IMG/VR virus record: IMGVR_UViG_2778261009_000010
Location: 1 to 11,825 of that record
Direction: 5' to 3' (one strand)
Length of the DNA: 11,825 bases
DNA from: a virus
Lineage: Duplodnaviria > Heunggongvirae > Uroviricota > Caudoviricetes
The notes under the pieces are model-generated. The model was not told where the DNA came from, made no database searches, and was given only the letters and a program-made list of their open reading frames with translations. A program made the position numbers and the translations under genes. This document shows, one piece after another, positions 1 through 11,825 of the stretch (positions are counted from its first letter, which is position 1; every line of letters begins with the position of its first letter).

Positions 1-72
1 ATCCTGACTTTCCAGAACCATACGGACTGCCCGTTGACGGACTTCGGGGGAAAAACGAGTATTTTTAGTCAT
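1..72 (-). CDS. IS3-family transposase OrfA, N-terminal 24 codons only (5' partial, runs off the window)
   Basis: ATG is the complement of 70-72; translation MTKNTRFSPEVRQRAVRMVLESQD; preceded by GAGG-type RBS. The six-frame track missed it because it is truncated by the window edge. Confidence 0.7.
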   Translation of the reverse strand, partial: MTKNTRFSPEVRQRAVRMVLESQD

Positions 73-126
73 CCTGTTTACCTCTTTCTCAGGAAGTTTA
101 GTCTCCAGGATTCCCGGGGCGGTTCA
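1..126 (-). mobile_element. Left end of an IS3-family insertion sequence (IS629/IS1203-like), partial; the element continues beyond the window start
   Basis: Minus-strand sequence from position 126 reads TGAACCGCCCCGGGAATCCTGGAGACTAAAC..., i.e. begins with the 5'-TG typical of IS3-family terminal repeats, followed by an RBS (AAAGAGG) and an ORF starting MTKNTRFSPEVRQRAVRMVLESQ, which I recognise as the N-terminus of IS629-type OrfA. The ren reading frame ends abruptly at this boundary. Confidence 0.7.
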
Positions 127-312
127 GGTAGCAAATCGGTAATACACCGTTCGCCAGACCTTACCTTCGATAACCAGAAGACCTGCCCGTGCCATTTTAG
201 CCGCGGCCTGATTTATGCTGGTTACTGTTGCGCCTGTTAGCGCGGCAACGTCCGGCGCACAGAAGCTATTATGCGTCCCCAGGTAATGAATAATTGCCTC
301 TTTGCCCGTCAT
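124..312 (-). CDS. ren: Ren (lambda Rex-endurance protein), C-terminally truncated by the IS insertion: 62 aa retained of about 96; likely a pseudogene
   Basis: Translation MTGKEAIIHYLGTHNSFCAPDVAALTGATVTSINQAAAKMARAGLLVIEGKVWRTVYYRFAT matches the N-terminal two thirds of lambda Ren as I recall it. Its stop codon TGA (124-126) is formed by the first bases of the IS terminal repeat. Its ATG overlaps the P stop (ATGA), as in lambda. Confidence 0.75.
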   Translation of the reverse strand: MTGKEAIIHYLGTHNSFCAPDVAALTGATVTSINQAAAKMARAGLLVIEGKVWRTVYYRFAT

Positions 313-1010
313 ACACTTGCTCCTTTCAGTCCGAACTTAGCTTTGATTTCTGCGATCTTCGCCAGAGCCTGTGCACGATTTAGAGGTCTACCGCCCATGA
401 CAGGAAGTTGTTTTACTGGTTCAGGGATCGCCTCACCACGGTTAATTCTCGCAGTCATATGGACAAGCTCATCTGCGGCCTTACGGCGTAATTCCGCATC
501 AGTAAGCGCATTGGCCCGCATGTTCTGATACAGGTTGGTAACCAGCCAGTAGTGCGCGTTTGATTTCCACGGATAAGACTCCGCATCCGGATACAGGCCT
601 CGCTTCCGGCAATACTCGTAAACCATATCAACCAGCTCGCTGACGTTTGGCAGTCCGGCGATAACGGATGCTTCTTCCCGACACCATGCAACAAACTGCC
701 CGGGTGATGGCAGAAATGGTCGATTCTGCCGACGGGCTACGCGCATTCCTGCGTTAACCTGTTCCATTGTGGTGATCCCGTTTTCCCGGAAAGCCAGCAC
801 CCACTGGCGGCGGATTTCGTTCAGTTCGTTCTGGTCCCGGTTAGCCAGGCTCGCCGGGAAAGTTGCCAGTAACTGGCTGAACACACCATTGATGATCTGC
901 GCTACCTGCTGTACCTGCGGCTTTTCGTCGTACTGTTCCAGCATGTTGTTGGCGATCCGGCGCATCTGCTCACGGTCAAAGTTAACCATCTGTGCGGCGA
1001 TGTTTTTCAT
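309..1010 (-). CDS. P: Replication protein P (DnaB helicase loader), lambda type
   Basis: 233-aa translation (MKNIAAQMVNFDREQMRRIANNM...KFGLKGASV) is recognisably lambda P over its whole length; sits immediately downstream of O with overlapping stop/start. Confidence 0.95.
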   Translation of the reverse strand: MKNIAAQMVNFDREQMRRIANNMLEQYDEKPQVQQVAQIINGVFSQLLATFPASLANRDQNELNEIRRQWVLAFRENGITTMEQVNAGMRVARRQNRPFLPSPGQFVAWCREEASVIAGLPNVSELVDMVYEYCRKRGLYPDAESYPWKSNAHYWLVTNLYQNMRANALTDAELRRKAADELVHMTARINRGEAIPEPVKQLPVMGGRPLNRAQALAKIAEIKAKFGLKGASV

Positions 1011-1906
1011 AAATCCACCCCGTAAATCCAGTCAGTGTTTGTCAGGTCGAGTTTTGATTTTCCGGCTGTCACGCCAGCCTGTTGCTTGTTACGGTTGATT
1101 TCGAGTTGGGTCCACTTGTCGCGGAGTTTGGCCGGACTTAGCACGTTACCGGACCAGAAGTTGTCCTGGCATGCCCAGCGGAACAGCACGCACATGTCGC
1201 GGTGGTTACGTCCGTCACGTTCACGCATCAGGCGGATATCGTTAGCCCACCCAGCAAAATTCGGTTTTCTGGCTGATGGTGCGATAATCTTCACCATGTC
1301 AAACATCCACTCTGCGGCGGTCAGGTCTTCTGCTGTCCCCCACTTGCTGCCGCTCTGAATTGCAGCATCCGGTTTAACCACAGAAAGATCGTTTTCTGGC
1401 TGGTCAGAGGATTTGCCAGAATTCTCGGACGAATAATCTTTTCTTTTTTCTTTTGTAATAGTGTCTTTTGTGTCCCCCTGTTTTGAGGGATAGCAATCCC
1501 CCAATTTGAGGGATGTTTTATCCCTCGTTTTAGGGGATTTTCCCTCGTTTTGAGGGATACACCATTCTGAGATGTTTTTATTTGGTCCAAACATGCCGCC
1601 TTGCTGCTTGATAATATTCATTCTGACGAGTTCTAACTTGGCTTCATTGCACCGTTTGACGGGTAACTTTGTAATCTCGCTAAGTTGAGAATCGGTGATT
1701 CTGTCCATTGGTTTATTCCACCCATAGGTTTTACGCAGAATGGCAAGCAGCACTTTAAACTGTCGCTTGGTCAGATCTGCGCCCGAATAAGCCTCAAGCA
1801 GCATATTTGATAGTCTGGCGTAACCATCATCGAGATCTGCCACATTACGCTCCTGTCCGGCAAAGTTACCTCTGCCGAAGTTGAGTATTTTTGCTGTATT
1901 TGTCAT
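1007..1906 (-). CDS. O: Replication initiator protein O, lambda type
   Basis: 299-aa translation (MTNTAKILNFGRGNFAGQERNVADLDDGYARL...TDWIYGVDL) is recognisably lambda O; the coding sequence contains the ori iterons. Confidence 0.95.
   Translation of the reverse strand: MTNTAKILNFGRGNFAGQERNVADLDDGYARLSNMLLEAYSGADLTKRQFKVLLAILRKTYGWNKPMDRITDSQLSEITKLPVKRCNEAKLELVRMNIIKQQGGMFGPNKNISEWCIPQNEGKSPKTRDKTSLKLGDCYPSKQGDTKDTITKEKRKDYSSENSGKSSDQPENDLSVVKPDAAIQSGSKWGTAEDLTAAEWMFDMVKIIAPSARKPNFAGWANDIRLMRERDGRNHRDMCVLFRWACQDNFWSGNVLSPAKLRDKWTQLEINRNKQQAGVTAGKSKLDLTNTDWIYGVDL
1473..1558. repeat. ori-lambda iterons: four 19-bp O-binding repeats, flanked at 1428-1471 by the AT-rich unwinding region
   Basis: Four copies of a TCCCTC-n7-GAGGGA palindrome: 1473-1491 tccccctgttttgagggat, 1496-1514 atcccccaatttgagggat, 1520-1538 atccctcgttttaggggat, 1540-1558 ttccctcgttttgagggat. 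Adjacent T-rich stretch ttcttttttcttttgtaatagtgtcttttg lies downstream in the O reading direction, as in lambda. Confidence 0.9.
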
Positions 1907-1909
1907 AAT
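1881..1909 (+). promoter_or_regulatory. pO-like promoter for the oop antisense RNA
   Basis: -35 TTGAGT (1881-1886), 17-bp spacer, -10 CATAAT (1904-1909), reading away from O into the 3' end of cII. Confidence 0.5.
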
Positions 1910-1915
1910 GACTCC

Positions 1916-1992
1916 TGTGGATTGATCCAGTAGTTCCCTCAGAATTGCATATCAATTTGCTTAAAATCCTCGGTGGCAGCCGGGGATTTTTT
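1916..1992 (+). ncRNA. oop: oop-like antisense RNA (about 77 nt), antisense to the 3' end of the cII-like gene
   Basis: Starts about 7 nt after the pO -10 and ends at an intrinsic terminator: stem tcctcgg (1967-1973), loop tggcag, stem ccgggga (1980-1986, one G-U pair), then TTTTTT (1987-1992). Position, length and orientation match lambda oop. Confidence 0.55.
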
Positions 1993-2235
1993 CTTTGTGA
2001 TTTCATCAAGCGCATACTTAAAAGCCCTGCTAATCGGACTGATGTCTGATGCCATTCCGAAAGCACACAGGACCGAAGCAATAAACCGCCAGTCCGTTCT
2101 GCTTATCTTCGATTCATGACAGCCAATCATCTTTGCCAGACCGCGCTGGGTAATAGTTGACAGATTGATAAGTAAATCTGTTTCTGCGCGATCAACGTCA
2201 CGCTGTGATAGTTTGCTGTAACTTGTTCTTTCCAT
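1939..2235 (-). CDS. cII: CII-like transcriptional activator (lysogeny establishment), non-lambda allele
   Basis: 98 aa between cro and O; HTH-like segment LAKMIGCHESKISRTDWR; C-terminus KKKSPAATEDFKQIDMQF resembles lambda CII C-terminus (NKKRPAATERSEQIQMEF). Confidence 0.8.
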   Translation of the reverse strand: MERTSYSKLSQRDVDRAETDLLINLSTITQRGLAKMIGCHESKISRTDWRFIASVLCAFGMASDISPISRAFKYALDEITKKKSPAATEDFKQIDMQF

Positions 2236-2273
2236 TTCTTAAGATTTCCAATAGTGAATAGTTAGTTGAAAGG

Positions 2274-2291
2274 TATGCGTGGAAACGCATA
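2274..2291 (-). terminator. Hairpin between nutR and cII, possible tR1-like element
   Basis: Inverted repeat tatgcgt/acgcata with 4-nt loop; only a short U-stretch follows on the minus strand, so if functional it is probably weak or Rho-assisted. Confidence 0.25.
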
Positions 2292-2320
2292 TGGCCTTAG
2301 TTGGTCAGATATCTTGGGAC

Positions 2321-2367
2321 TCGCTTTTCAGCGACGTAGGACGAATGTCCGTTGTTACAAAGAGCGG
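2321..2367 (-). promoter_or_regulatory. nutR candidate (boxA plus two stem-loops) downstream of cro
   Basis: Minus strand reads cGCTCTTTgtAACAACGgacattcgtcCTACGTcGCTGAAAAGCga: a boxA-like GCTCTTT, then a short hairpin (ggac/gtcc), then a 5-bp stem with GAAA loop. Near-duplicate of the element upstream of N on the plus strand. Confidence 0.55.
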
Positions 2368-2373
2368 GGTTAC

Positions 2374-2601
2374 TTATGCTGCCAGAAGGTTCTTTTTGCT
2401 TATTTCAAGCAATTCGCTTGCTTGATATTTGCCACCAGAAATCTCTTCGATTTTTGAGGCGTATTTCGTTTTCCCAAAAAACTCAGTCTTAGGGAGGAAG
2501 CCGTTTTTGAGCCACTTATAGACAGCCCTTTCGCTAACTCCACAAGCCTTCGCAACTTCAGGGATGCCGACACCTTTAATCGGCTCATCAAGATTTTGCA
2601 T
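2374..2601 (-). CDS. cro: Cro-like HTH repressor, non-lambda allele
   Basis: 75 aa, first gene transcribed divergently from the cI-like repressor; HTH segment VAKACGVSERAVYKWLKNG. Confidence 0.7.
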   Translation of the reverse strand: MQNLDEPIKGVGIPEVAKACGVSERAVYKWLKNGFLPKTEFFGKTKYASKIEEISGGKYQASELLEISKKNLLAA

Positions 2602-2680
2602 AGGAATATCCCTTTTTCGTACTTTTAGTACGCATTATGGTTGAACTGAAAGTTTTTGCAAGTGCTTTAGTATCGTACTC
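2602..2680. promoter_or_regulatory. OR region: divergent pR / pRM promoters with operator-like palindromes
   Basis: Minus-strand pR candidate: -35 TTGCAA (2656-2661), 16-bp spacer, -10 CATAAT (complement of 2634-2639). Palindrome CGTACT-ttt-AGTACG (2618-2632) overlaps the predicted pR start; second palindrome AGTA-tcg-TACT (2669-2679) lies just upstream of the cI ATG. The cI ATG at 2681 has no Shine-Dalgarno, consistent with a leaderless pRM transcript as in lambda. Confidence 0.6.
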
Positions 2681-3391
2681 ATGGTTCAGAATGAAAAAGT
2701 GCGCAAAGAATTCGCCCAGCGGCTAGCGCAAGCCTGTAAAGAAGCTGGTCTTGATGAACATGGTAGGGGTATGGCCATAGCCCGTGCCCTTTCTCTTTCG
2801 TCCAAAGGCGTTAGCAAATGGTTTAATGCTGAGTCTTTACCGCGTCAGGAAAAAATGAATGCGCTTGCGAAATTTCTAAACGTTGATGTTGTTTGGCTTC
2901 AGCACGGCACTTCGTTAAATGGAGCGAATGATGAAGATAATACTCTTTCATTTGTTGGCAAATTAAAAAAAGGGTTAGTGCGCGTGGTTGGTGAGGCAAT
3001 TCTTGGTGTTGATGGTGCCATCGAGATGACCGAAGAGCGCGATGGGTGGCTCAAGATTTATAGTGATGATCCAGATGCCTTTGGTCTTCGTGTGAAAGGA
3101 GACAGCATGTGGCCCAGAATAAAATCAGGAGAATATGTACTCATTGAGCCTAACACCAAAGTATTCCCGGGGGATGAGGTGTTTGTCAGAACCGTTGAAG
3201 GACACAACATGATCAAGATTCTTGGCTATGACAGAGATGGAGAATACCAATTTACAAGCATCAACCAGGACCACAGGCCAATAACGTTACCTTATCATCA
3301 AGTAGCAAAGGTGGAGTATGTGGCTGGTATTCTGAAGCAATCTCGTCATCTGGATGACATCGAGGCAAGGGAGTGGCTGAAAAGTTTGTGA
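2681..3391 (+). CDS. cI: CI-like prophage repressor (N-terminal HTH, C-terminal S24/LexA-type autopeptidase domain), non-lambda immunity
   Basis: 236 aa; divergent from cro; C-terminal domain carries GDSMWPRIKSGEYVLIEP (Ser nucleophile motif) and a downstream MIKIL lysine, typical of LexA/CI family. Confidence 0.9.
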   Translation: MVQNEKVRKEFAQRLAQACKEAGLDEHGRGMAIARALSLSSKGVSKWFNAESLPRQEKMNALAKFLNVDVVWLQHGTSLNGANDEDNTLSFVGKLKKGLVRVVGEAILGVDGAIEMTEERDGWLKIYSDDPDAFGLRVKGDSMWPRIKSGEYVLIEPNTKVFPGDEVFVRTVEGHNMIKILGYDRDGEYQFTSINQDHRPITLPYHQVAKVEYVAGILKQSRHLDDIEAREWLKSL

Positions 3392-3468
3392 CTTCAAGTA
3401 CGCGACAAGCCCCGTCCTTCAGGGCGTGGTGGATGTCAAAATAACTTTAAATAACACACCACCAACAT

Positions 3469-3497
3469 TTAACACATTGAATTAAAAAACCTACAAT
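3469..3497 (+). promoter_or_regulatory. Candidate internal promoter upstream of the cargo operon
   Basis: -35 TTAACA (3469-3474), 17-bp spacer, -10 TACAAT (3492-3497) in the 110-bp AT-rich gap after cI. Pattern match only. Confidence 0.3.
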
Positions 3498-3502
3498 ATT
3501 TG

Positions 3503-3835
3503 ATGAGAGGCGTTATGGAACCGGTCAAAATTAAACCATCTGTGGATTATATTGAAACCTATGCGGACTTCGCTAGTTTTGCTCCACTACCGGGAGCGGA
3601 AAAAAATCTCATTTGTATACATTTTATCGCAAACAAGTCAATACCTGCGGTACTATCCCAAAATGATATACCAGATCAACCAGGTAGAGCGAATATGCAG
3701 ATAGGCTCTGTAAATGAACTCAATCAGCAATGCACTGTGATAATGCCAATGGCACAACTAAAGGCTCTTCAGGAGAATATAGTTCTTCTTTTCGAACAAT
3801 TAGAGGCACAAAACTCTAATGGAGCGAAGTCGTAA
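3503..3835 (+). CDS. Hypothetical small protein, first gene of the cargo operon in the rexA position (start ambiguous: ATG 3503 or ATG 3515)
   Basis: ORF in the same orientation as cI; GAGAGG (3505-3510) precedes ATG 3515; stop overlaps the next start (TAATG at 3833-3837). No resemblance to lambda RexA that I can recognise. Confidence 0.6.
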   Translation: MRGVMEPVKIKPSVDYIETYADFASFAPLPGAEKNLICIHFIANKSIPAVLSQNDIPDQPGRANMQIGSVNELNQQCTVIMPMAQLKALQENIVLLFEQLEAQNSNGAKS

Positions 3836-4518
3836 TGCAACAACCGGAAGAAGTAGGTGATTTAACTATTACTTACAAAACATCAAGTATTGTTAAACCA
3901 CTGCAAGTTTCCCTGAATAACGTTAATACTCGCGATTTCATGATGTTCATGGAAACAGCAAAAGGTAATCTGTTTTCTACGCCTATTTCCTCTTATTCAC
4001 CAAAAAACATGGTGGATGATGCGACCAATTCCCAGCTAACTGCTACAATCGTAGATAAAGGAGGGGTTGCCGATTGTAAAGGACAATCTAATGTTATCCC
4101 ACCGTACGAGGAAACTCCTATACAGGGAACCGCAATGTCCGATTTGAGCAGAAACGAAATACAGGCACTTCTGAAGGCAAATAAAGCTGAAGTGGATGCA
4201 GTGGCCTCAAAAATGCAGGCTGATATGGCCAAATGGCGTGAACTAATGGCTTCAGATATAAAGGAGATGAAGCATTTAGTTGTTACTCAGCACGAACAAA
4301 TCAACAGTCGTCTGGACATACAATCGAGTAGAATTGAGAGTGCCCTTGACTCCCAATCAAAAAAGATCGATGCAGCTCTTTCTGTTCAAGAGGCAAAGTT
4401 AGAAGGTAAGCTTAGTGATGTTAAGCTTGATATAATCAAATGGGCCCTTGGCTTGCCAGCATTAGCATTTGCTGTATATAAAATCTACGGATTGCTCTCT
4501 GGAGTCTCAACCCCCTAA
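3835..4518 (+). CDS. Hypothetical coiled-coil protein with a single C-terminal transmembrane helix (tail-anchored), second gene of the cargo operon in the rexB position
   Basis: 227 aa; residues about 105-200 are rich in heptad-like charged/hydrophobic pattern (EIQALLKANKAEVDAVASKMQADMAKWRELMASDIKEMK...); C-terminus WALGLPALAFAVYKIYGLL is a 19-residue hydrophobic segment; followed directly by a strong intrinsic terminator. Confidence 0.7.
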   Translation: MQQPEEVGDLTITYKTSSIVKPLQVSLNNVNTRDFMMFMETAKGNLFSTPISSYSPKNMVDDATNSQLTATIVDKGGVADCKGQSNVIPPYEETPIQGTAMSDLSRNEIQALLKANKAEVDAVASKMQADMAKWRELMASDIKEMKHLVVTQHEQINSRLDIQSSRIESALDSQSKKIDAALSVQEAKLEGKLSDVKLDIIKWALGLPALAFAVYKIYGLLSGVSTP

Positions 4519-4523
4519 TACAC

Positions 4524-4550
4524 ACCCGGCCTCAGTGCCGGGTTTTCTTT
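4524..4550 (+). terminator. Rho-independent terminator ending the cI / cargo operon
   Basis: Stem cccggc (4525-4530), loop ctcagt, stem gccggg (4537-4542), then TTTTCTTT (4543-4550). Confidence 0.7.
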
Positions 4551-4740
4551 GCCCAACGTTCGCCCACCTAAAAACACATAATCGATTGTATTTATTGAAA
4601 AACTGATAGATACAACTTGCTAAACAGTGCAACCCTGATCCCTGCCCCATCACCTTCATCCTCAACATTTACAAAAATAAAATACCTTATATATCAAAAC
4701 CATATCTCGAGGAAACGAATGAACAACAAAATTTCGTACT

Positions 4741-4790
4741 TATGGTTCTTGATTGTATCGAACCAATAGTTCATTATTATCACCATCAGC
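4741..4790 (+). promoter_or_regulatory. Putative OL / pL region
   Basis: TTTCGTACTTATGGTTC (4741-4757) repeats the TTCGTACTT...ATGGTT motif of the OR region. Candidate -35 TTGATT (4758-4763), 17-bp spacer, -10 CATTAT (4781-4786), about 35 nt upstream of the nutL candidate and about 180 nt upstream of N. Inverted repeat TGGTTC(n10)GAACCA (4752-4773) spans the -35. Confidence 0.4.
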
Positions 4791-4823
4791 AGGACGCTGG
4801 AAGCCAAACGGAACAGACTGGCA

Positions 4824-4870
4824 GGCTCTTTAAACAACGTCGAACTCTCGACTACGTGGCTGAAAAGCCA
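4824..4870 (+). promoter_or_regulatory. nutL candidate (boxA plus two stem-loops) upstream of N
   Basis: gGCTCTTTaAACAACGtcgaactctcgaCTACGTgGCTGAAAAGCca: boxA-like GCTCTTT (4825-4832), hairpin gtcga/tcgac (4839-4852), and 5-bp stem with GAAA loop (4857-4870). Matches the minus-strand element at 2321-2367. Confidence 0.55.
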
Positions 4871-4968
4871 GATCACCCAACCACATAAGCTGTGGGATGC
4901 AATGCCGAAGCAACCGTCTCAGGAGGAGCTTCGAGATTGCATCGCCAAAGTTTATTCGGGAGGAATCT

Positions 4969-5241
4969 ATGTCCAGAAAAACAAAATTTAAAGGCACCGC
5001 AGCTTCTCGCCGTAGAGCCCGTCGCGCAAATCTGCAAAGTCAGGAGGCGATCAGCTCCGACAAGCTACACAGACCAACCCCTTCACGAGTGGTCTTGCAA
5101 TGCAAGCGCAAACCAGCAATGAGAGCAGAAGTTATAACTCTGACAACGTTGACCAGAAAATATGAAGGTTCAACTTGTCTTCCGAACGTAGCTCTTTACG
5201 CGGCAGGCTACCGGAAATCAAAACAACTGACGGCGAGATGA
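4969..5241 (+). CDS. N: N-like transcription antiterminator (P22 gene 24 / phage 21 N type) with arginine-rich motif
   Basis: RBS GGGAGGAA (4958-4965) then ATG 4969; 90 aa MSRKTKFKGTAASRRRARRANLQ... with N-terminal arginine-rich RNA-binding motif; C-terminus VALYAAGYRKSKQLTAR resembles the P22 gene-24 protein C-terminus as I recall it. The track ORF 4897-5241 is an upstream extension of the same frame. Confidence 0.8.
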   Translation: MSRKTKFKGTAASRRRARRANLQSQEAISSDKLHRPTPSRVVLQCKRKPAMRAEVITLTTLTRKYEGSTCLPNVALYAAGYRKSKQLTAR

Positions 5242-5257
5242 TAAATTAATTTGCTAA

Positions 5258-5839
5258 TTACTTGTTTTTGCCATGCTTATCCTGAGCGATAAGTTCATCC
5301 ATAAGACTGTCTTTCTTCCCAGCAAACCTAATGTAGCACTCATTTCTATAGCGTTCCGGGATAACAAAACGGTCGATTTCAGGATATCCAGTAGCAGAAG
5401 GTACCCGAATAAGAAGCCCTTTTTCGAGCAATGAGATTGCTTCAGGGCTTCCCTTTTCTGTCTTTAGCTGGTTATTAGCGGCTACAGCGAATGCCAAATA
5501 CGCTCTTTCTCCAAGAGTTAACGAATCAAACAAATCTTGCACGTATTTCTCTTCTTTAGATTTGCGCTTCTGAGCAGCGAATATCTCAATTCTTTCAGTC
5601 ACAGCGTGATAAGCGGAATTAACAACGCCGTTAAGCACATAGCTAACGCAAAACAACAGGATGTAATACATCCAGTAATGAGGAAGGATTTCTGGATTAT
5701 GCAGGTTTATCCATTCTTTTACGCTTACAGGCATAACAATAATCAATATGATCAGGATGATTAGCATATGAATCAACTGTTTAAGTGTCATTCCTTGCAG
5801 GAAAAAATGCATTAGTTCCTGCCACCATGAGTTGTTCAT
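5258..5839 (-). CDS. sieB: SieB-like superinfection exclusion membrane protein
   Basis: 193 aa, convergent with N, same position and orientation as lambda sieB relative to N/ea10; two N-terminal hydrophobic helices (LIHMLIILIILIIVMPVSV; HYWMYYILLFCVSYVLNGVV). Confidence 0.6.
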   Translation of the reverse strand: MNNSWWQELMHFFLQGMTLKQLIHMLIILIILIIVMPVSVKEWINLHNPEILPHYWMYYILLFCVSYVLNGVVNSAYHAVTERIEIFAAQKRKSKEEKYVQDLFDSLTLGERAYLAFAVAANNQLKTEKGSPEAISLLEKGLLIRVPSATGYPEIDRFVIPERYRNECYIRFAGKKDSLMDELIAQDKHGKNK

Positions 5840-6053
5840 CGGCGTTTCTCTTTTGCTCTCTGTAGGGGTGAATAGAGTTTATCCGATTTCTCGCTGTAGG
5901 GGTACACGAGAACCACCGAGCCTGATGTGGTTAAAAGACAGGCATACTAATAAACACTGCACTGTGTATTCATTCCAACGAGTGAATACACTGAGCAATG
6001 TCGCTCGTAACTAAACAGGAGCCGACTTGTTCTGATTATTGGAAATCTTCTTT

Positions 6054-6079
6054 GCCCTCCAATGTGAGGGCGATTTTTT
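6054..6079 (+). terminator. Rho-independent terminator upstream of ea10 (tL2-like position)
   Basis: Stem gccctc (6054-6059), loop caatgt, stem gagggc (6066-6071), then GATTTTTTA. Confidence 0.6.
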
Positions 6080-6099
6080 ATCTGTGAGGATATGAATAG

Positions 6100-6468
6100 A
6101 TGTCAAACATCAAAAAATACATCATTGATTACGACTGGAAAGCATCAATAGAAATTGAAATCGACCATGACGTAATGACAGAGGAAAAACTTCACCAGAT
6201 TAATAATTTCTGGTCAGACTCTGAATACCGACTCAATAAACACGGCTCTGTATTAAATGCTGTATTAATCATGCTGGCGCAACATGCTCTGCTTATAGCA
6301 ATTTCAAGCGACTTAAATGCATATGGTGTTGTGTGTGAGTTCGACTGGAATGATGGAAATGGTCAGGAAGGATGGCCTCCAATGGATGGTAGCGAAGGAA
6401 TAAGAATTACCGATATCGATACATCAGGAATATTTGATTCAGATGATATGACTATCAAAGCCGCCTGA
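6100..6468 (+). CDS. ea10: Ea10-like protein of the lambda pL operon
   Basis: 122 aa; RBS GTGAGGA (6084-6090); size and position upstream of cIII as in lambda. Sequence identity to lambda Ea10 is from memory and not verified. Confidence 0.8.
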   Translation: MSNIKKYIIDYDWKASIEIEIDHDVMTEEKLHQINNFWSDSEYRLNKHGSVLNAVLIMLAQHALLIAISSDLNAYGVVCEFDWNDGNGQEGWPPMDGSEGIRITDIDTSGIFDSDDMTIKAA

Positions 6469-6492
6469 GCGCGGCGTTACCGCATACCAATA

Positions 6493-6518
6493 ACGCTTCA
6501 CTCGAGGCGTTTTTCGTT
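6493..6518 (+). terminator. Terminator-like hairpin between ea10 and cIII
   Basis: Stem acgcttc / gaggcgt (one G-U), loop actc, followed by TTTTCGTT. Confidence 0.35.
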
Positions 6519-6540
6519 ATGTATAAATAAGGAGCACACC

Positions 6541-6705
6541 ATGCAATATGCCATTGCAGGGTGGCCTGTTGCTGGCTGCCCTTCCGAATCTTTACTTGAA
6601 CGAATCACCCGTAAATTACGTGACGGATGGAAACGCCTTATCGACATACTTAATCAGCCAGGAGTCCCAAAAAATGGATCAAACACTTATGGCTATCCAG
6701 ACTAA
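6541..6705 (+). CDS. cIII: CIII (inhibitor of FtsH-mediated CII degradation)
   Basis: Manual translation from ATG 6541 (RBS AAGGAG 6529-6534): [54 protein letters not shown], 54 aa, which I recognise as lambda CIII. Below the 60-aa cutoff of the ORF track. Confidence 0.9.
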   Translation: MQYAIAGWPVAGCPSESLLERITRKLRDGWKRLIDILNQPGVPKNGSNTYGYPD

Positions 6706-6817
6706 ATTCACTATCGCCACTTTTATTGGCGATGAAAAGATGTTTCGTGAGGCCGTCGACGCTTATAAAAAATGGATATTAATACTGAAACTGAGATCAA
6801 GCAAAAGCATTCACTAA
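6674..6817 (+). CDS. kil: Kil (host cell-division inhibitor)
   Basis: 47 aa [47 protein letters not shown], the C-terminal part of track ORF 6548-6817; overlaps the cIII 3' end and the gam 5' end as in lambda. Confidence 0.85.
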
Positions 6818-7188
6818 CCCCCTTTCCTGTTTTCCTAATCAGCCCGGCATTTCGCGGGCGATATTTTCACAGCTATTTCAGGAGTTCAGCCATGAACGCT
6901 TATTACATTCAGGATCGTCTTGAGGCTCAGAGCTGGACGCGTCACTACCAGCAGATCGCCCGTGAAGAGAAAGAGGCAGAACTGGCAGACGACATGGAAA
7001 AAGGTCTGCCCCAGCACCTGTTTGAATCACTCTGCATCGATCATTTACAACGCCACGGGGCCAGCAAAAAAGCCATTACCCGTGCGTTTGATGACGATGT
7101 TGAGTTTCAGGAGCGCATGGCAGAACACATCCGGTACATGGTTGAAACCATTGCTCACCACCAGGTTGATATTGATTCAGAGGTATAA
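6772..7188 (+). CDS. gam: Gam (RecBCD inhibitor)
   Basis: 138 aa [29 protein letters not shown]...[10 protein letters not shown], recognisably lambda Gam. Confidence 0.95.
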
Positions 7189-7193
7189 AACGG

Positions 7194-7979
7194 ATGAGTA
7201 CAGCACTCGCAACGCTGGCTGGGAAGCTGGCTGAACGCGTCGGCATGGATTCTGTCGACCCACAGGAACTGATCACCACTCTTCGCCAGACGGCATTTAA
7301 AGGTGATGCCAGCGATGCGCAGTTCATCGCATTGCTGATCGTCGCCAACCAGTACGGCCTTAATCCGTGGACGAAAGAAATTTACGCCTTCCCTGACAAG
7401 CAGAACGGCATCGTTCCGGTGGTGGGCGTTGATGGCTGGTCCCGTATCATCAATGAAAACCAGCAGTTTGATGGCATGGACTTTGAGCAGGACAATGAAT
7501 CCTGCACATGCCGGATTTACCGCAAGGACCGCAATCATCCGATCTGCGTTACCGAGTGGATGGATGAATGCCGCCGCGAACCATTCAAAACCCGCGAAGG
7601 CAGAGAAATCACGGGGCCGTGGCAGTCGCATCCCAAACGGATGTTACGGCATAAAGCCATGATTCAGTGTGCCCGTCTCGCCTTCGGATTTGCTGGTATC
7701 TATGACAAGGATGAAGCCGAGCGCATTGTCGAAAATACCGCATACACTGCAGAACGTCAGCCGGAACGCGACATCACTCCGGTTAACGATGAAACCATGC
7801 AGGAGATTAACACTCTGCTGATTGCCCTGGATAAAACATGGGATGACGACTTATTGCCGCTCTGTTCCCAGATATTTCGCCGCGACATTCGCGCATCGTC
7901 AGAACTGACACAGGCCGAAGCAGTGAAAGCTCTTGGATTCCTGAAACAGAAAGCCACTGAGCAGAAGGTGGCTGCATGA
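7194..7979 (+). CDS. bet: Bet (Red-beta single-strand annealing recombinase)
   Basis: 261 aa [37 protein letters not shown]..., recognisably lambda Bet. Confidence 0.95.
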
Positions 7980-8656
7980 CACCGGACATTATCCTGCAGC
8001 GTACCGGGATCGACGTGAGAGCTGTCGAACAGGGGGATGATGCGTGGCACAAATTACGGCTCGGCGTCATCACCGCTTCAGAGGTTCACAATGTGATAGC
8101 AAAACCCCGCTCCGGAAAGAAATGGCCTGACATGAAAATGTCCTACTTCCACACCCTGCTTGCCGAGGTTTGCACCGGTGTGGCTCCGGAAGTTAACGCT
8201 AAGGCACTGGCCTGGGGAAAACAGTACGAGAACGACGCCAGAACCCTGTTTGAGTTCACTTCCGGCGTGAATGTTACTGAATCCCCGATCATCTATCGCG
8301 ACGAAAGTATGCGCACCGCCTGCTCTCCCGATGGTTTATGCAGTGACGGCAATGGCCTTGAGCTGAAATGCCCGTTTACCTCCCGGGATTTCATGAAGTT
8401 CCGGCTCGGTGGTTTCGAGGCCATAAAGTCGGCTTACATGGCCCAGGTGCAGTACAGCATGTGGGTGACGCGAAAAGATGCCTGGTACTTTGCCAACTAT
8501 GACCCGCGGATGAAGCGTGAAGGCCTGCATTATGTCGTGGTTGAGCGGGATGAAAAGTACATAGCGAGTTTTGACGAGATGGTGCCGGAGTTCATCGAAA
8601 AAATGGACGAGGCACTGGCTGAAATTGGTTTTGTATTTGGGGAGCAATGGCGATGA
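7976..8656 (+). CDS. exo: Exo (lambda exonuclease, Red-alpha)
   Basis: 226 aa [50 protein letters not shown]..., recognisably lambda Exo; start overlaps bet stop (ATGA). Confidence 0.95.
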
Positions 8657-8811
8657 CGCATCCTCACGATAATATCCGGGTAGGCGCGATCACTTTCGTC
8701 TACTCCGTTACAAAGCGAGGCTGGGTATTTCCCGGCCTTTCTGTTATCCGAAATCCGCTGAAAGCCCAGCGGCTGGCTGAGGAGATAAATAATAAACGGG
8801 AGAGTGTATGA
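8653..8811 (+). CDS. Small hypothetical protein (52 aa), translationally coupled between exo and the 250-aa ORF
   Basis: Manual translation from ATG 8653 (overlapping the exo stop): [52 protein letters not shown]; its stop overlaps the next ATG (ATGA at 8808-8811). Too short for the ORF track. Confidence 0.5.
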
Positions 8812-9560
8812 TTCATTTTCACGGTGGTCCAATAACTCCCGATACCTGTGCGTTGAAAGCCTGGAAAGGCAGACACGCATTCATCAGTTTTGCTAATCCA
8901 GCTCAGATTGATCTGGCTTCCGAAGTCACCCAATCATTTGCTCTTGATAATGGTGCATTCACATTCTGGACAAAAAACAAGGCCGTAGACTGGAATGAAT
9001 ATTACAGATTTGTTGAACGCTGGGGCAATCACCCTCGTTTCTCATTCGCGGTTATCCCGGATGTTATCGGCGGAACCAGTGAAGAGAATGACGCCCTGAT
9101 TGCGGCATGGCCTCACGGTAAATTTATTGGTGCTCCGGTGTGGCACATGAACGAACCAGATGAGCGATTTATTCGTCTGTGCCATGAGTTTCCCCGCGTC
9201 TGCATCGGCTCGATGGGGGAATACGATGCAAAACGACCGAGAGCGTGTCGGGCTAAACTACGCGATCTTATACGTCATGTTGTAGATCAGTACGGCTACC
9301 CAATCACCAAGATTCATGGGTTACGGATGTTAAATAAAGACATTTTTACTCATGTACCGCTTTCGTCTGCAGACAGCACGAACGTCGCAAGAAATATAGG
9401 CATCGACAAATCCTGGGTAGGTTCGCCATATGCTCCCGCAAGTAAAGAAACCCGTACGCAAGTTCTTGTGGAACGCATTGAATCATTCAACAGTGCCAGT
9501 TCACTTAATTACAACGCTGAACGGGACGTCTTTACCCCTCAACTGGCATTCGAAGTGTGA
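8808..9560 (+). CDS. Hypothetical protein (250 aa), accessory gene downstream of exo
   Basis: Long ORF in the operon orientation, start coupled to the preceding small ORF. Not any lambda protein I can recognise. Confidence 0.75.
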   Translation: MIHFHGGPITPDTCALKAWKGRHAFISFANPAQIDLASEVTQSFALDNGAFTFWTKNKAVDWNEYYRFVERWGNHPRFSFAVIPDVIGGTSEENDALIAAWPHGKFIGAPVWHMNEPDERFIRLCHEFPRVCIGSMGEYDAKRPRACRAKLRDLIRHVVDQYGYPITKIHGLRMLNKDIFTHVPLSSADSTNVARNIGIDKSWVGSPYAPASKETRTQVLVERIESFNSASSLNYNAERDVFTPQLAFEV

Positions 9561-9567
9561 GGCCAAT

Positions 9568-9783
9568 ATGACAATAGAACATAATAACGCCCTTCGCAGT
9601 ATTGCCCGTCAGGCTAATTCTGAAATCAAAAAAGCCAGACAGCAGTTTCCGGATAAAAACGTCGATGACATTTGCCGTAGCGTACTGAAGAAGCACCGCG
9701 AAACGGTAACGCTGATGGGATTCACACCGACTCACTTAAGTCTGGCAATCGGCATGTTAAACGGCGTTTTTAAGGAACGGTGA
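9568..9783 (+). CDS. Hypothetical protein (71 aa)
   Basis: ATG 9568 preceded by GAGG (9559-9562), 7 nt after the stop of the 250-aa ORF; MTIEHNNALRSIARQANSEIKKARQQFPDKNVDD... The track ORF 9430-9783 is an upstream extension that overlaps the preceding gene and is unlikely to be the real start. Confidence 0.6.
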   Translation: MTIEHNNALRSIARQANSEIKKARQQFPDKNVDDICRSVLKKHRETVTLMGFTPTHLSLAIGMLNGVFKER

Positions 9784-9805
9784 ACATGAAAAGCAAAATC
9801 ATCAG

Positions 9806-9826
9806 GGAGCTACAGGCTCCTTTTTT
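9806..9826 (+). terminator. Weak terminator-like hairpin
   Basis: Stem ggagc (9806-9810), loop tacag, stem gctcc (9816-9820), then TTTTTT (9821-9826). Short stem. Confidence 0.3.
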
Positions 9827-9881
9827 ATTATTCGCATTCACCCTCAAGCGTATTAACCAACAATTCAGGGATTAATGAAAG

Positions 9882-10103
9882 ATGGCAGACATCATTGATT
9901 CAGCATCAGAAATTGAAGAATTACAGCGCAACACAGCAATAAAAATGCGCCGCCTGAACCACCAGGCTATATCTGCCACTCATTGTTGTGAGTGTGGCGA
10001 TCCGATAGATGAACGAAGACGCCTGGCCGTTCAGGGTTGTCGGACTTGTGCAAGTTGCCAGGAGGATCTGGAACTTATCAGTAAACAGAGAGGTTCGAAG
10101 TGA
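9882..10103 (+). CDS. TraR/DksA-family C4 zinc-finger protein (lambda Orf73-like RNA polymerase-binding factor)
   Basis: 73 aa with CxxC-x17-CxxC (CCECGDPIDERRRLAVQGCRTCASC), the DksA/TraR zinc-finger signature, and the size of TraR-type proteins. Confidence 0.8.
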   Translation: MADIIDSASEIEELQRNTAIKMRRLNHQAISATHCCECGDPIDERRRLAVQGCRTCASCQEDLELISKQRGSK

Positions 10104-10255
10104 GCGAAATTAACTAGAAGTCAAAGATAAAATCATCGCTGAGCAGGAGAAAATCGCTAACGGAGAAAAGACAGTAAGTCAGTATATGAAAACCGCATGA
10201 TATCATCAGATAAAAATCGATCGTAAAGCGAAATATTCATACCAGAATAAACGAG

Positions 10256-10279
10256 TCGAGGTAAATTATATTACCTCGA
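10256..10279 (-). terminator. Hairpin downstream of the minus-strand membrane-protein gene, possible terminator
   Basis: Perfect 9-bp inverted repeat tcgaggtaa / ttacctcga with 6-nt loop, 35-60 nt past the stop of the 10314-10916 gene; the following minus-strand sequence is only moderately U-rich. Confidence 0.35.
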
Positions 10280-10313
10280 TAAATTAACTAAAACTTGCCC
10301 GCTATATACTATC

Positions 10314-10916
10314 TCATTCAGTATCATCACGCGTGGTCTGTGCATATGTCACTACCGCACCTAATGTATTAATTTTCTTTTCAACATAGATAATATTATC
10401 GTACTCATAATTGCCATACGGATAGCAAATGCGAATATCCTCATGTAGATCGGGGTCATCCACCTCAGCTCCAGAACAACTTTTTGAACTACCGGAAGTA
10501 TACCGATACGGTGCAACATAAGACGATGTCTCTCCAGGCAAAAAATAAGTTAGTGTTGTAAGGGGTATAATCAGAAAAAATCCAGAAAATATGCATATCC
10601 CTGCATAAACCTTAAGGTATGCTGACAGACTCTTCCAGCCGCTTTGTTTTACTATCCCCTTCTTAACCCAAAACAGAGATAACAGAAAAGCTATTCCCAT
10701 GCTAAACAGAATGTAATAGTGGGATATACTCTGATTAAGAAACGTGACCCTGTAGATATCTGCCCGCCACCAGAAGAAAAGGAAAATAAAGATCAGCCCT
10801 GAAACTGTCATGCAAATCAAATAAGGATACGAATCTTTTTTCATGTTTAGCGCCCATAAAATTTTTCCTGCCCCGGACAAATTTACCATCCATTTTTTGC
10901 GCAGAAAATAGCTCAT
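10314..10916 (-). CDS. Hypothetical integral membrane protein (3-4 predicted TM helices), low-GC moron on the opposite strand; start uncertain (ATG 10916 or internal ATG 10844)
   Basis: 200 aa with hydrophobic segments YLICMTVSGLIFIFLFFWW, YYILFSMGIAFLLSLFWV, ICIFSGFFLIIPLTTLTYFL and a roughly 60-aa hydrophilic C-terminal domain; coding sequence visibly more AT-rich than the lambda-type genes; opposite strand to the surrounding operon. Confidence 0.7.
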   Translation of the reverse strand: MSYFLRKKWMVNLSGAGKILWALNMKKDSYPYLICMTVSGLIFIFLFFWWRADIYRVTFLNQSISHYYILFSMGIAFLLSLFWVKKGIVKQSGWKSLSAYLKVYAGICIFSGFFLIIPLTTLTYFLPGETSSYVAPYRYTSGSSKSCSGAEVDDPDLHEDIRICYPYGNYEYDNIIYVEKKINTLGAVVTYAQTTRDDTE

Positions 10917-11087
10917 TACTTACTGCACAATAATACACAAAATTGCGTAAATTTTTTGCATGGATTTTAGCTCTTTCAGCCGACATTTAAGGGGTAAAGA
11001 GCATTTCCTAAAAGCAACTGACCAACCCAACAGAATGGGCTACCGCTTACGTTGAGAGCAAAAAAGTGTATAGCAGCAATGAACAGC

Positions 11088-11116
11088 ATCCTCGCACTGA
11101 CGAGGATTTCTTTTAT
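11088..11116 (+). terminator. Rho-independent terminator with no obvious upstream plus-strand gene
   Basis: Stem atcctcg (11088-11094), loop cactga, stem cgaggat (11101-11107), then TTCTTTTAT. Confidence 0.6.
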
Positions 11117-11157
11117 CTGAACTCGCTACGGCGGGTTTTGTTTTATGGAGACAAGAA

Positions 11158-11502
11158 ATGTCAGATTTGGCTATGAAGGTTTTGAAATGGCAATCAACTG
11201 GCGATGTCGGCATCAGTAGCGCAACTCTTGCCTCAATCGCATGTGGCCTGAAAAAGAATATCTATGGTCATCACTTCGGCGCTCCCCATGACGCAGCAGA
11301 CTTTCGGCGATGCGTTGCACTTGTTGAGCAGATTCCAGAAATCAGAGATTCATTCGACAAGGTTGCAAAGCGCGTTCCGGCATTCAAAGGAATCCTCAAC
11401 GAATGGGATTCACTCGTTGCTCTGTTGAAGTCTGAAATGAAGACGTACGGGAACAAAGCACCAGAGACTTACAGAAGAATCAGCGAGCTACGCAAGGACT
11501 AA
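11158..11502 (+). CDS. Hypothetical protein (114 aa)
   Basis: ORF with GGAGA (11145-11149) upstream of ATG 11158; followed by a hairpin gcctca/tgaggc at 11506-11524. No recognised family. Confidence 0.7.
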   Translation: MSDLAMKVLKWQSTGDVGISSATLASIACGLKKNIYGHHFGAPHDAADFRRCVALVEQIPEIRDSFDKVAKRVPAFKGILNEWDSLVALLKSEMKTYGNKAPETYRRISELRKD

Positions 11503-11624
11503 CCCGCCTCACACTCGATGAGGCCTGTTCATTTCTCAAGATATCCAGACCTACCATTGCTGCATCAATGCGGCTTTTTATTGCCTGATTTGCAGGTTCG
11601 ATTCCATATTCGGAGATAGCACTC

Positions 11625-11825
11625 ATGCAACACGAACTACAACCTGATTCACTGGTTGATTTGAAATTCATCATGGCTGATACTGGCTTCGGTAAGACCT
11701 TCATCTATGACCGGATTAAGTCCGGCGACCTGCCTAAAGCCAAAGTTATCCACGGACGAGCAAGATGGTTATATCGTGACCATTGTGAATTCAAAAATAA
11801 GCTCTTAAGCCGCGCCAATGGGTAA
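11625..11825 (+). CDS. AlpA-family DNA-binding protein, probable excisionase (Xis) preceding an integrase beyond the window
   Basis: 66 aa; MerR-like winged HTH pattern typical of AlpA/Xis proteins (LVDLKFIMADTGFGKTFIYDRIKSGDLPKAKVIHGRARWLYRDHCEFKNKL); GGAGA RBS upstream; located where xis sits in lambdoid phages (distal end of the pL operon). Confidence 0.75.
   Translation: MQHELQPDSLVDLKFIMADTGFGKTFIYDRIKSGDLPKAKVIHGRARWLYRDHCEFKNKLLSRANG

Follow-up and report, generated by a model that had tools for sequence, protein, structure and literature searches.

We analyzed a stretch of 11,825 nucleotides (nt) from a virus of the class Caudoviricetes (IMG/VR record IMGVR_UViG_2778261009_000010, positions 1 to 11,825), termed the window, focusing on three consecutive open reading frames (ORFs) on the plus strand downstream of the exonuclease gene exo, which encode proteins of 52, 250 and 71 amino acids (aa) and are termed ORF-A, ORF-B and ORF-C. 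The ORF list together with the Pfam and PHROG matches showed the window to hold the early genes of a lambdoid (pro)phage. The exo TGA (8654–8656) and the ORF-A ATG (8653–8655) share the ATGA at 8653–8656, and the ORF-A TGA (8809–8811) and the ORF-B ATG (8808–8810) share in the same way the ATGA at 8808–8811. An in-frame ATG at 8647 would additionally extend ORF-A to 54 aa. A previous model-generated description based on the letters of the window and its ORFs (the sequence-only reading) had reported these junctions, the 7-nt gap before ORF-C, the ribosome-binding site of ORF-C (the GAGG listed in Table 1) and the packed, overlapping arrangement within the variable exo-xis region, all of which agree with the sequence and the ORF list. 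Judged by their conservation, the three ORFs are confirmed as real conserved genes and not chance ORFs. ORF-B is very probably a member of the DpdA family of guanine transglycosylases.

The assignment of ORF-B is carried by its relationship to phage DpdA proteins. ORF-B matched PHROG 887, named 'queuine tRNA-ribosyltransferase', over residues 1–245 (E=4e-99), with a score comparable to that obtained for the DpdA of phage 9g (E=2e-98), a protein that likewise lacks a match to the Pfam model for tRNA-guanine transglycosylases (TGT). A profile built from 55 members of the ORF-B family aligned with 9g DpdA at an hhalign probability of 98.5% (E=3.9e-15, 150 columns), pairing the LDxGAF, H113, KxHG and SxDS motifs of the two proteins. 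Furthermore, ORF-B is 100% identical to gp34 of the isolated phage SfI (YP_009147480), which carries the RefSeq name 'queuine tRNA-ribosyltransferase', and 99.6% identical to its counterpart in PhiR5_1, a phage growing on E. coli C. Searches of phage genomes with tblastn yielded BTP1 gp23 (67.6% identity) and HK106 gp29 (37%), and the same method tied ORF-B to the DpdA of Salmonella phage 7-11 (36% identity, E=1e-27) as well as to actinophage genes described as "DpdA-like". Both the SfI protein and HK106 YP_007151699 are listed as DpdA only in Supplementary Data 1 of Hutinet et al. 2019 (PMC6884629). Since ORF-B is identical to the listed SfI protein, its assignment was already known as a prediction, and the earlier statement that no motif of the 250-aa protein could be assigned is superseded. 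The identification is an ordinary and correct one and does not describe a new kind of system. The speculation that the protein might serve DNA modification or anti-restriction turned out to point in the right direction, as homology places ORF-B among the 7-deazaguanine DNA transglycosylases of the DpdA family. Because this family is one of accessory DNA modification, ORF-B was not placed in a well-characterised housekeeping family.

The family is large, with 6182 homologues of ORF-B at E≤1e-3 and ~1670 clusters (50% identity) matched by the family profile at the same threshold. Compared with homologues of 80–91% protein identity, the nonsynonymous divergence (dN) was 0.07–0.16 with synonymous sites saturated, and ORF-B is under strong purifying selection. 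In searches against Pfam, including the TGT model PF01702, and against NCBIfam, ORF-B obtained no match, and none of the three ORFs matched a PADLOC model. Searching PDB sequences with ORF-B (phmmer) and with the family profile (hmmsearch) returned chance matches only, to HipT and GCN4 coiled coils. An hhalign comparison of the family profile with the single sequence of E. coli Tgt gave a probability of 0.7%, indicating no relationship, so that the link to canonical TGTs is an indirect one via the phage DpdAs and the fold. As ORF-B has neither a PF01702 match nor a Zn site, its assignment as a canonical TGT was rejected. The missing Pfam and NCBIfam models imply that annotation pipelines overlook a likely DNA-hypermodification enzyme in common E. 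coli and Shigella prophages. Of 5426 complete E. coli genomes, 100 carry the gene, each time on the chromosome and with at least 99% identity; the PGAP label was "hypothetical protein" in 15 of the 15 E. coli records listed. Besides E. coli and Shigella prophages, close homologues were present in Klebsiella and Salmonella phages.

The AlphaFold2 (AF2) model of ORF-B, with a predicted local distance difference test score (pLDDT) of 80.6 and a predicted template modelling score (pTM) of 0.81, shows a β/α barrel and is predicted to adopt the TGT-like (β/α)8 fold. A Foldseek search, as proposed in the sequence-only reading, returned 26 matches in BFVD at E≤1e-3, of which those bearing a name are nearly all phage queuine tRNA-ribosyltransferases; the same model yielded nothing informative against the PDB. 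Across the 55 family members, extending down to 32% identity, D47, H170, D189 and S190 are invariant, and H5, G6, D85, H113, E116, G134 and R173 are nearly so. Upon addition of 9g DpdA, 7-11 DpdA and HK106 gp29 to the alignment, D47, G49, A50, F51, H113, G134, H170, P184, D189 and S190 were still invariant. In the AF2 model, successive strands (43–47, 78–82 followed by D85, 111–113, 130–134, 168–172 and 187–190) carry the conserved residues at their C-terminal ends, and such strand ends form the catalytic face of a TIM barrel. By analogy, we propose D47 as general acid/base, D85 and H113 as residues of base recognition and H170 with D189 as the nucleophile pair, and G134-S135-M136 as a pocket for the 7-substituent. 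The bacterial enzyme DpdA depends on Asp95 as acid/base and on Asp256 as nucleophile, both essential, and recognizes the base through Asp130 and His181 (PMC10164549); in Cap10 the catalytic pair is D248/H226 (bioRxiv 10.1101/2025.04.06.647259).

Comparison with known enzymes delineates which of their features ORF-B retains. 9g DpdA, representing the DpdA1 type of 9g and CAjan (PMC6884629), shares with ORF-B the PHROG family, the four motifs and the absence of the Cys/His zinc motif of TGTs: in ORF-B, cysteines occur only at positions 14, 125, 132 and 147 and 61 residues follow D189, leaving no CxCxxC...H Zn motif, and 9g DpdA likewise has no such Cys motif. The two proteins differ in that they share 16% identity and that 9g DpdA, with 317 aa, carries a C-terminal extension that ORF-B lacks. 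ORF-B moreover stands alone, in a lambdoid phage that is temperate and devoid of pathway genes. It resembles in this the singleton 'DpdA-only' proteins (group 3: SfI gp34, HK106 gp29, 7-11 and BTP1 gp23), which are lone genes as well, and nothing structural sets ORF-B apart from them. Bacterial DpdA (Salmonella Montevideo, PDB 7UI4; PMC10164549) contains its three active-site Asp and the His in the same order as ORF-B, and its G-G/S-M motif at the 7-substituent pocket would correspond to G134-S135-M136. In contrast to ORF-B, this 413-aa protein has four insertions, including the 128-residue Ins8, and a structural Zn2+ site; it also requires the ParB-like ATPase DpdB as part of a restriction-modification system, and no ParB-like gene is present in the window. 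Given the missing PADLOC match, membership of ORF-B in a bacterial Dpd defence system was rejected. With the bacterial and archaeosine TGTs, ORF-B shares the fold class and, as proposed, base exchange by double displacement, while TGTs possess a Zn subdomain and act on tRNA; ORF-B has no such subdomain, and its substrate is presumably DNA.

To characterize the genomic setting, we used a neighbourhood set of 80 IMG/VR loci with homologues 77–100% identical to ORF-B and considered the genes within 10 kb. DUF1317 lay directly upstream in 31 of the 80. A TraR gene was present in 46, at variable distance, and was not seen beside the homologues in an Aeromonas P2-like prophage, phage BTP1 and Vibrio phage Athena1, so that the dedicated link to the TraR-like gene considered in the sequence-only reading could not be upheld. 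ASCH-type (3/80), ParB-like (7/80) and Dam genes (12/80) were sporadic neighbours. The search for a conserved partner gene was without success, as none was consistent across the 80 loci. Homologues occur in early replication and recombination regions of diverse phages, comprising P22-like BTP1, HK97-like HK106, the P2-like Aeromonas prophage, Vibrio phage Athena1 and a Salmonella prophage; in HK106, BTP1 and SfI, the DpdA homologue lies between the recombination genes and xis-int.

More distant members connect the family with 7-deazaguanine and with DNA modification. On two metagenome contigs (L010, 1922–3121; L011, 535–1734), a homologue of 49% identity is directly followed by a gene of the Vut_1/YhhQ family, to which the preQ0 transporter belongs, and the neighbouring dUTPase and PhoH genes suggest a virulent phage importing a deazaguanine base. 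One family member, P0246, carries an N-terminally fused QueD/PTPS domain (L098, 2840–3847; a single contig). Another, P0236, is fused N-terminally to a truncated D12 Dam DNA methyltransferase (L099, 6001–7266; again a single contig) and is found at the Dam position of a P2-like prophage, flanked by gpA and a TraR-like gene; lacking the first ~40 barrel residues and the last ~50 positions of the Dam profile, this fusion may be a chimera. In Pantoea phage AH07 (L096, 2182–4256), the gene of a 440-aa ParB-HTH (helix-turn-helix) protein precedes the ORF-B homologue and overlaps its start; this protein recalls DpdB and is absent from the window.

Table 1. Genes and sequence features of the window, in order of position where coordinates are given.
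Feature	Position	Strand	Remarks
P	309–1010	−	
O	1007–1906	−	
cII and cro		−	
cI	2681–3391	+	S24 peptidase plus HTH
N		+	PF25694
DUF2528, cIII/kil		+	Early genes of the window
gam	6772–7188	+	
bet	7194–7979	+	
exo (lambda exonuclease, YqaJ family)	7976–8656	+	Pfam YqaJ E=6e-30; PHROG 149 exonuclease
ORF-A, 52 aa	8653–8811	+	Start overlaps exo stop
Shine-Dalgarno-like GGGAGAG	8798–8804	+	Within the end of ORF-A, 5 nt before the ORF-B ATG; read from the sequence
Replaced cassette, 784 nt	8803–9586	+	Unaligned with 434 or lambda
ORF-B, 250 aa	8808–9560	+	Very probably a stand-alone DpdA-family (TGT-superfamily) guanine transglycosylase, minimal TIM-barrel core
Shine-Dalgarno-like GAGG	9559–9562	+	5 nt before the ORF-C ATG
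ORF-C, 71 aa	9568–9783	+	ATG 7 nt past the ORF-B stop
Intrinsic-terminator-like hairpin AGGGAGCTACAGGCTCCTT followed by a T tract	9804–9832 (hairpin 9804–9822)	+	Terminator scan; just past ORF-C
TraR/DksA-type C4 zinc-finger protein, 73 aa	9882–10103	+	Pfam PF01258 E=7.7e-9; 100% identical to the 434 zinc-finger protein

The two genes flanking ORF-B are resident lambdoid genes. ORF-A matched Pfam DUF1317 (PF07026; E=2.5e-33) and shares 96% identity over 52 aa with lambda orf60a and 93% with orf60a of phage 434, identifying it by sequence as a homologue of lambda orf60a. Its C-terminus is truncated at the cassette junction, where NNKRESV precedes the stop compared with NNKRGAVCTKHLLLS in lambda; as the second codon of ORF-B makes the ATGA, orf60a loses its last 8 codons. 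ORF-C matched PHROG 303 (E=1.1e-34), and phage 434 has a 71-aa gene product sharing 94% identity with it. Residues 1–24 of ORF-C match the C-terminal part of lambda orf61 (75% over 24 aa), its first ~6 codons are part of the cassette junction, and its counterpart in PhiR5_1 is labelled 'orf61'. On these sequence relationships, ORF-C is the orthologue of the 71-aa gene of 434, an orf61-related, conserved protein of the exo-xis region.

A DNA alignment calculated with MAFFT showed near-identity of the window, 434 and lambda up to position 8802 and again from 9587. The 784-nt cassette in between stands in place of ~292 nt of 434, comprising orf63 (DUF1382) and a spacer, with the ORF-B ATG at the position of the orf63 ATG. 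In agreement with this, a megablast search of phage genomes using 8400–10150 as query gave more than 95% coverage only for SfI and PhiR5_1, and 434, Stx phages and others matched in two pieces skipping ORF-B. As the alignment breaks flank the ORF-B cassette only, the view of the whole cluster as replaced cargo is true for ORF-B alone, which is absent from lambda, and fails for ORF-A and ORF-C, which are residents of the exo-xis region. The related claim that lambda carries different small genes here is contradicted by ORF-A, which is orf60a, and by the 24 residues that ORF-C has in common with orf61. With this cluster the lambdoid exo-xis region begins, and resident orf60a and an orf61-type gene flank a cassette that replaces orf63. 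Gene order and the overlap with the exo stop, including the same ATGA junction, are as in lambda; the difference is that orf63 (DUF1382), present in lambda, is absent here and ORF-B found instead. Two studies tie the exo-xis genes orf60a, orf61 and orf63 to the lysis-lysogeny decision and to prophage induction (PMC6213356, PMC3824215). ORF-A and ORF-C are outside the chemistry of ORF-B, and no functional link was found.

An identical ORF-B was also observed in a prophage of E. coli ZH193 (L004, 10425–12356) within a block of exo, orf60a, DpdA, orf61 and TraR genes. This prophage has a different immunity and replication region and contains SIR2-family and ASCH-domain genes. The presence of the block on a different backbone indicates that it moves among lambdoid backbones by mosaic exchange.

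A scan for sigma-70-like promoters on the plus strand found none between exo and ORF-C. Together with the terminator-like hairpin after ORF-C, this places ORF-A, ORF-B and ORF-C in the transcription unit of exo, driven from pL. The hairpin lies within a 29-aa ORF (9786–9875, plus strand), which is an annotated coding sequence in phages 434 and SfI and 100% identical in 434; owing to this location, its conservation may reflect the RNA element instead of the peptide.

Based on homology and on analogy to characterized enzymes, we assign a probability of roughly 60% to the reading in which ORF-B, as a stand-alone guanine transglycosylase of DNA, replaces some guanines of the phage DNA, at low density, by preQ0 that the host has made. 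Upon induction or infection, N-antiterminated transcription from pL would yield ORF-B along with exo, bet and gam during replication of the phage DNA. The enzyme would flip selected guanines out of the double-stranded phage DNA, and Asp189, positioned by His170, would displace the guanine and become covalently linked to the deoxyribose, while Asp47 would serve as general acid/base. This enzyme-deoxyribose intermediate would then be resolved by a free 7-deazaguanine base, most likely preQ0 from the queuosine pathway of the host (FolE-QueD-QueE-QueC). The outcome would be sparse and probably motif-specific dPreQ0 (or dADG) marks in the packaged DNA, which may weaken restriction, or further defences directed at DNA, once the next host is infected. 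As pL is repressed in the prophage, the chromosome of a lysogen would stay largely unmodified. The analysis shows family membership, fold, conserved catalytic residues, selection and the single-gene status of ORF-B, whereas we infer the substrate, the DNA target, the modification density and the protective role in this scheme. Insertion of a 7-deazaguanine into DNA by ORF-B is in itself probable by analogy, and protection from restriction as its role is tentative, being suggested by analogy at somewhat less than even odds.

Previous work provides a precedent for a lone enzyme: 9g DpdA expressed alone in E. coli introduced dPreQ0 into plasmid DNA at 0.03–0.3% of G, drawing on the E. coli preQ0 pool (PMC6884629). 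The sufficiency of 9g DpdA alone, together with the dADG carried by phage 7-11, makes such activity plausible. DpdA-only phages are, with 76 members, the largest deazaguanine-related phage group, and their modification status was considered "difficult to predict" (Hutinet et al. 2019, PMC6884629).

Several observations weigh against this interpretation of ORF-B. Measurements on DpdA-only phages are confined to two: in phage 7-11 the modification is at trace level, 0.02% of G, and is dADG rather than dPreQ0, and phage Orion, whose host lacks preQ0, has no modification; with nil or trace modification in these two phages, protective levels are unproven. A literature search for DpdA in connection with lambdoid phages, or for HK106 with deazaguanine, found no experimental work. 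Substrate supply is likewise not encoded nearby: FolE, QueD, QueE, QueC or YhhQ were detected in 0 of the 80 loci using tblastn with 9g FolE, QueD, Gat-QueC and QueE and a YhhQ-like query, and the window ORFs include no gene for preQ0 synthesis or transport. The co-encoded FolE, QueD, QueE and QueC characteristic of complete-pathway phage DpdAs (groups 1 and 2; Hutinet 2019) were hence found neither among the window ORFs nor in the 80 loci. On the structural side, only one of the five AF2 models of ORF-B was confident, and D85, conserved within the family, aligns ambiguously with 9g DpdA. Two elements that serve TGT and bacterial DpdA close to the nucleic acid, a Zn subdomain and a large insertion at the C-terminal side, are missing from ORF-B, and with an isoelectric point (pI) of ~7.2 the protein is not basic. 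Finally, its best structural neighbour is Cap10, which binds a protein-linked deazaguanine and not DNA.

The trace or absent modification, the missing nucleic-acid-binding extension and Cap10 as closest solved structure leave some weight on a broader alternative for the pathway-less DpdAs of temperate phages, namely that they are not bulk modifiers directed against restriction but set a very sparse, site-specific 7-deazaguanine mark with an epigenetic or self-identity function, or act on a non-DNA target, for instance to counter host immunity based on deazaguanine (Cap9/Cap10 of type IV CBASS, QatABCD). We regard this alternative as unlikely.

Quite unlikely, in our estimate, is an action of ORF-B on RNA, by which a phage tRNA-guanine transglycosylase would remodel host or phage tRNA, e.g. 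at position 34, in the lytic phase in favour of phage translation. Such an activity would agree with the RefSeq and PHROG name 'queuine tRNA-ribosyltransferase', with the fold and catalytic residues common to TGT and ArcTGT, and with the suggestion by Hutinet et al. that phage queuosine-pathway genes could raise queuosine in host tRNA. The profile comparisons argue in the opposite direction, as ORF-B matched neither the Pfam TGT model nor, in hhalign, E. coli Tgt, and it contains neither the Zn-binding nor the C-terminal tRNA-recognition module. Moreover, 9g DpdA as a validated member of PHROG 887 acts on DNA independently of the host Tgt, DNA methyltransferases occur as fusion partners or neighbours of family members, and E. 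coli already possesses its own Tgt.

We also considered that ORF-B is in effect a DNA glycosylase, which at little free preQ0 would remove guanine, or else a base that is damaged or modified, and not re-insert one, serving recombination or repair or acting against modified competitor DNA. The chemistry does begin with base excision via a covalent Asp intermediate, the gene adjoins the Red recombination genes, and the substrate-supply genes were not found nearby. Abasic sites would nevertheless be harmful to the phage's own genome, and D85, H113 and G134, the proposed residues of base recognition, are conserved as in exchange enzymes. The links of the family to YhhQ-type and QueD proteins point in addition to the use of 7-deazaguanine, rendering a pure glycosylase very unlikely.

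More doubtful still is the proposal that ORF-B handles 7-deazaguanine outside the phage DNA, be it by acting on a protein-nucleobase conjugate as Cap10 does, by sequestering, transferring or removing the base as counter-defence against type IV CBASS or QatABCD, or by draining preQ0. Cap10 of type IV CBASS (PDB 9NTN) has a His-Asp catalytic pair as ORF-B does, with similar spacing (H226/D248 compared with H170/D189), and the minimal barrel, its neutral pI, the absence of an obvious nucleic-acid-binding module and the nil or trace modification measured for DpdA-only phages would all suit such a function. Yet in the structure comparison Cap10 led bacterial DpdA by only 0.9 Z units, at 9% identity between ORF-B and Cap10, and by sequence the family groups with the DNA-modifying DpdAs of phages. 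Cap10 acts together with the QueC-like Cap9 and a CD-NTase that has the N-terminus M(G/S)G(G/S)GG and an N-terminal deazaguanine conjugate. Neither the window nor related loci revealed a partner of the CD-NTase, Cap9 or QueC-like kind. The proposal, for which no PADLOC defence model was matched either, is purely speculative. A direct assignment of ORF-B as Cap10 was rejected, as there is no such operon: the window contains the usual early genes of lambdoid phages, and related loci gave no QueC-like match.

Least credible is that the whole cluster constitutes exo-xis regulatory cargo tuning lysis-lysogeny or induction with ORF-B as a decayed enzyme, for although ORF-B sits in the orf63 slot and exo-xis genes affect lysogenisation and induction according to PMC6213356 and PMC3824215, its catalytic residues are invariant at ~32–90% identity, it is under strong purifying selection, and its family of ~1670 clusters spans several phage types and differing genomic niches.

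A lambdoid DpdA represents a genetically easy system for studying whether a lone DpdA uses host preQ0 and which target motif it recognizes. It also suits the question whether sparse marks protect against restriction, Cas nucleases and the newly described deazaguanine-directed glycosylases.

Additional genes of the window lie apart from the exo-xis cluster. Between cI and N, the place of rexAB in lambda, two overlapping plus-strand ORFs encode proteins of 111 aa (3500–3835) and 227 aa (3835–4518), the latter with a coiled-coil region and a hydrophobic C-terminus. Neither gave a Pfam match above threshold or a credible PADLOC match (CCDC90-like was below the cutoff and HEC-07 marginal), and we consider the pair a candidate for a prophage-expressed exclusion or defence cassette. 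The superinfection-exclusion protein SieB is encoded at 5258–5839 (Pfam PF14163, E=1e-25) on the minus strand, opposite in direction to the pL region in which it is embedded. Finally, a 200-aa multi-pass membrane protein without a family match is encoded on the minus strand (10314–10916) between the TraR-like gene and the next plus-strand genes. Its gene has its own terminator-like hairpin (10279–10256, minus strand) and looks like a moron, and phage 434 carries a 'putative membrane protein' at the same place.

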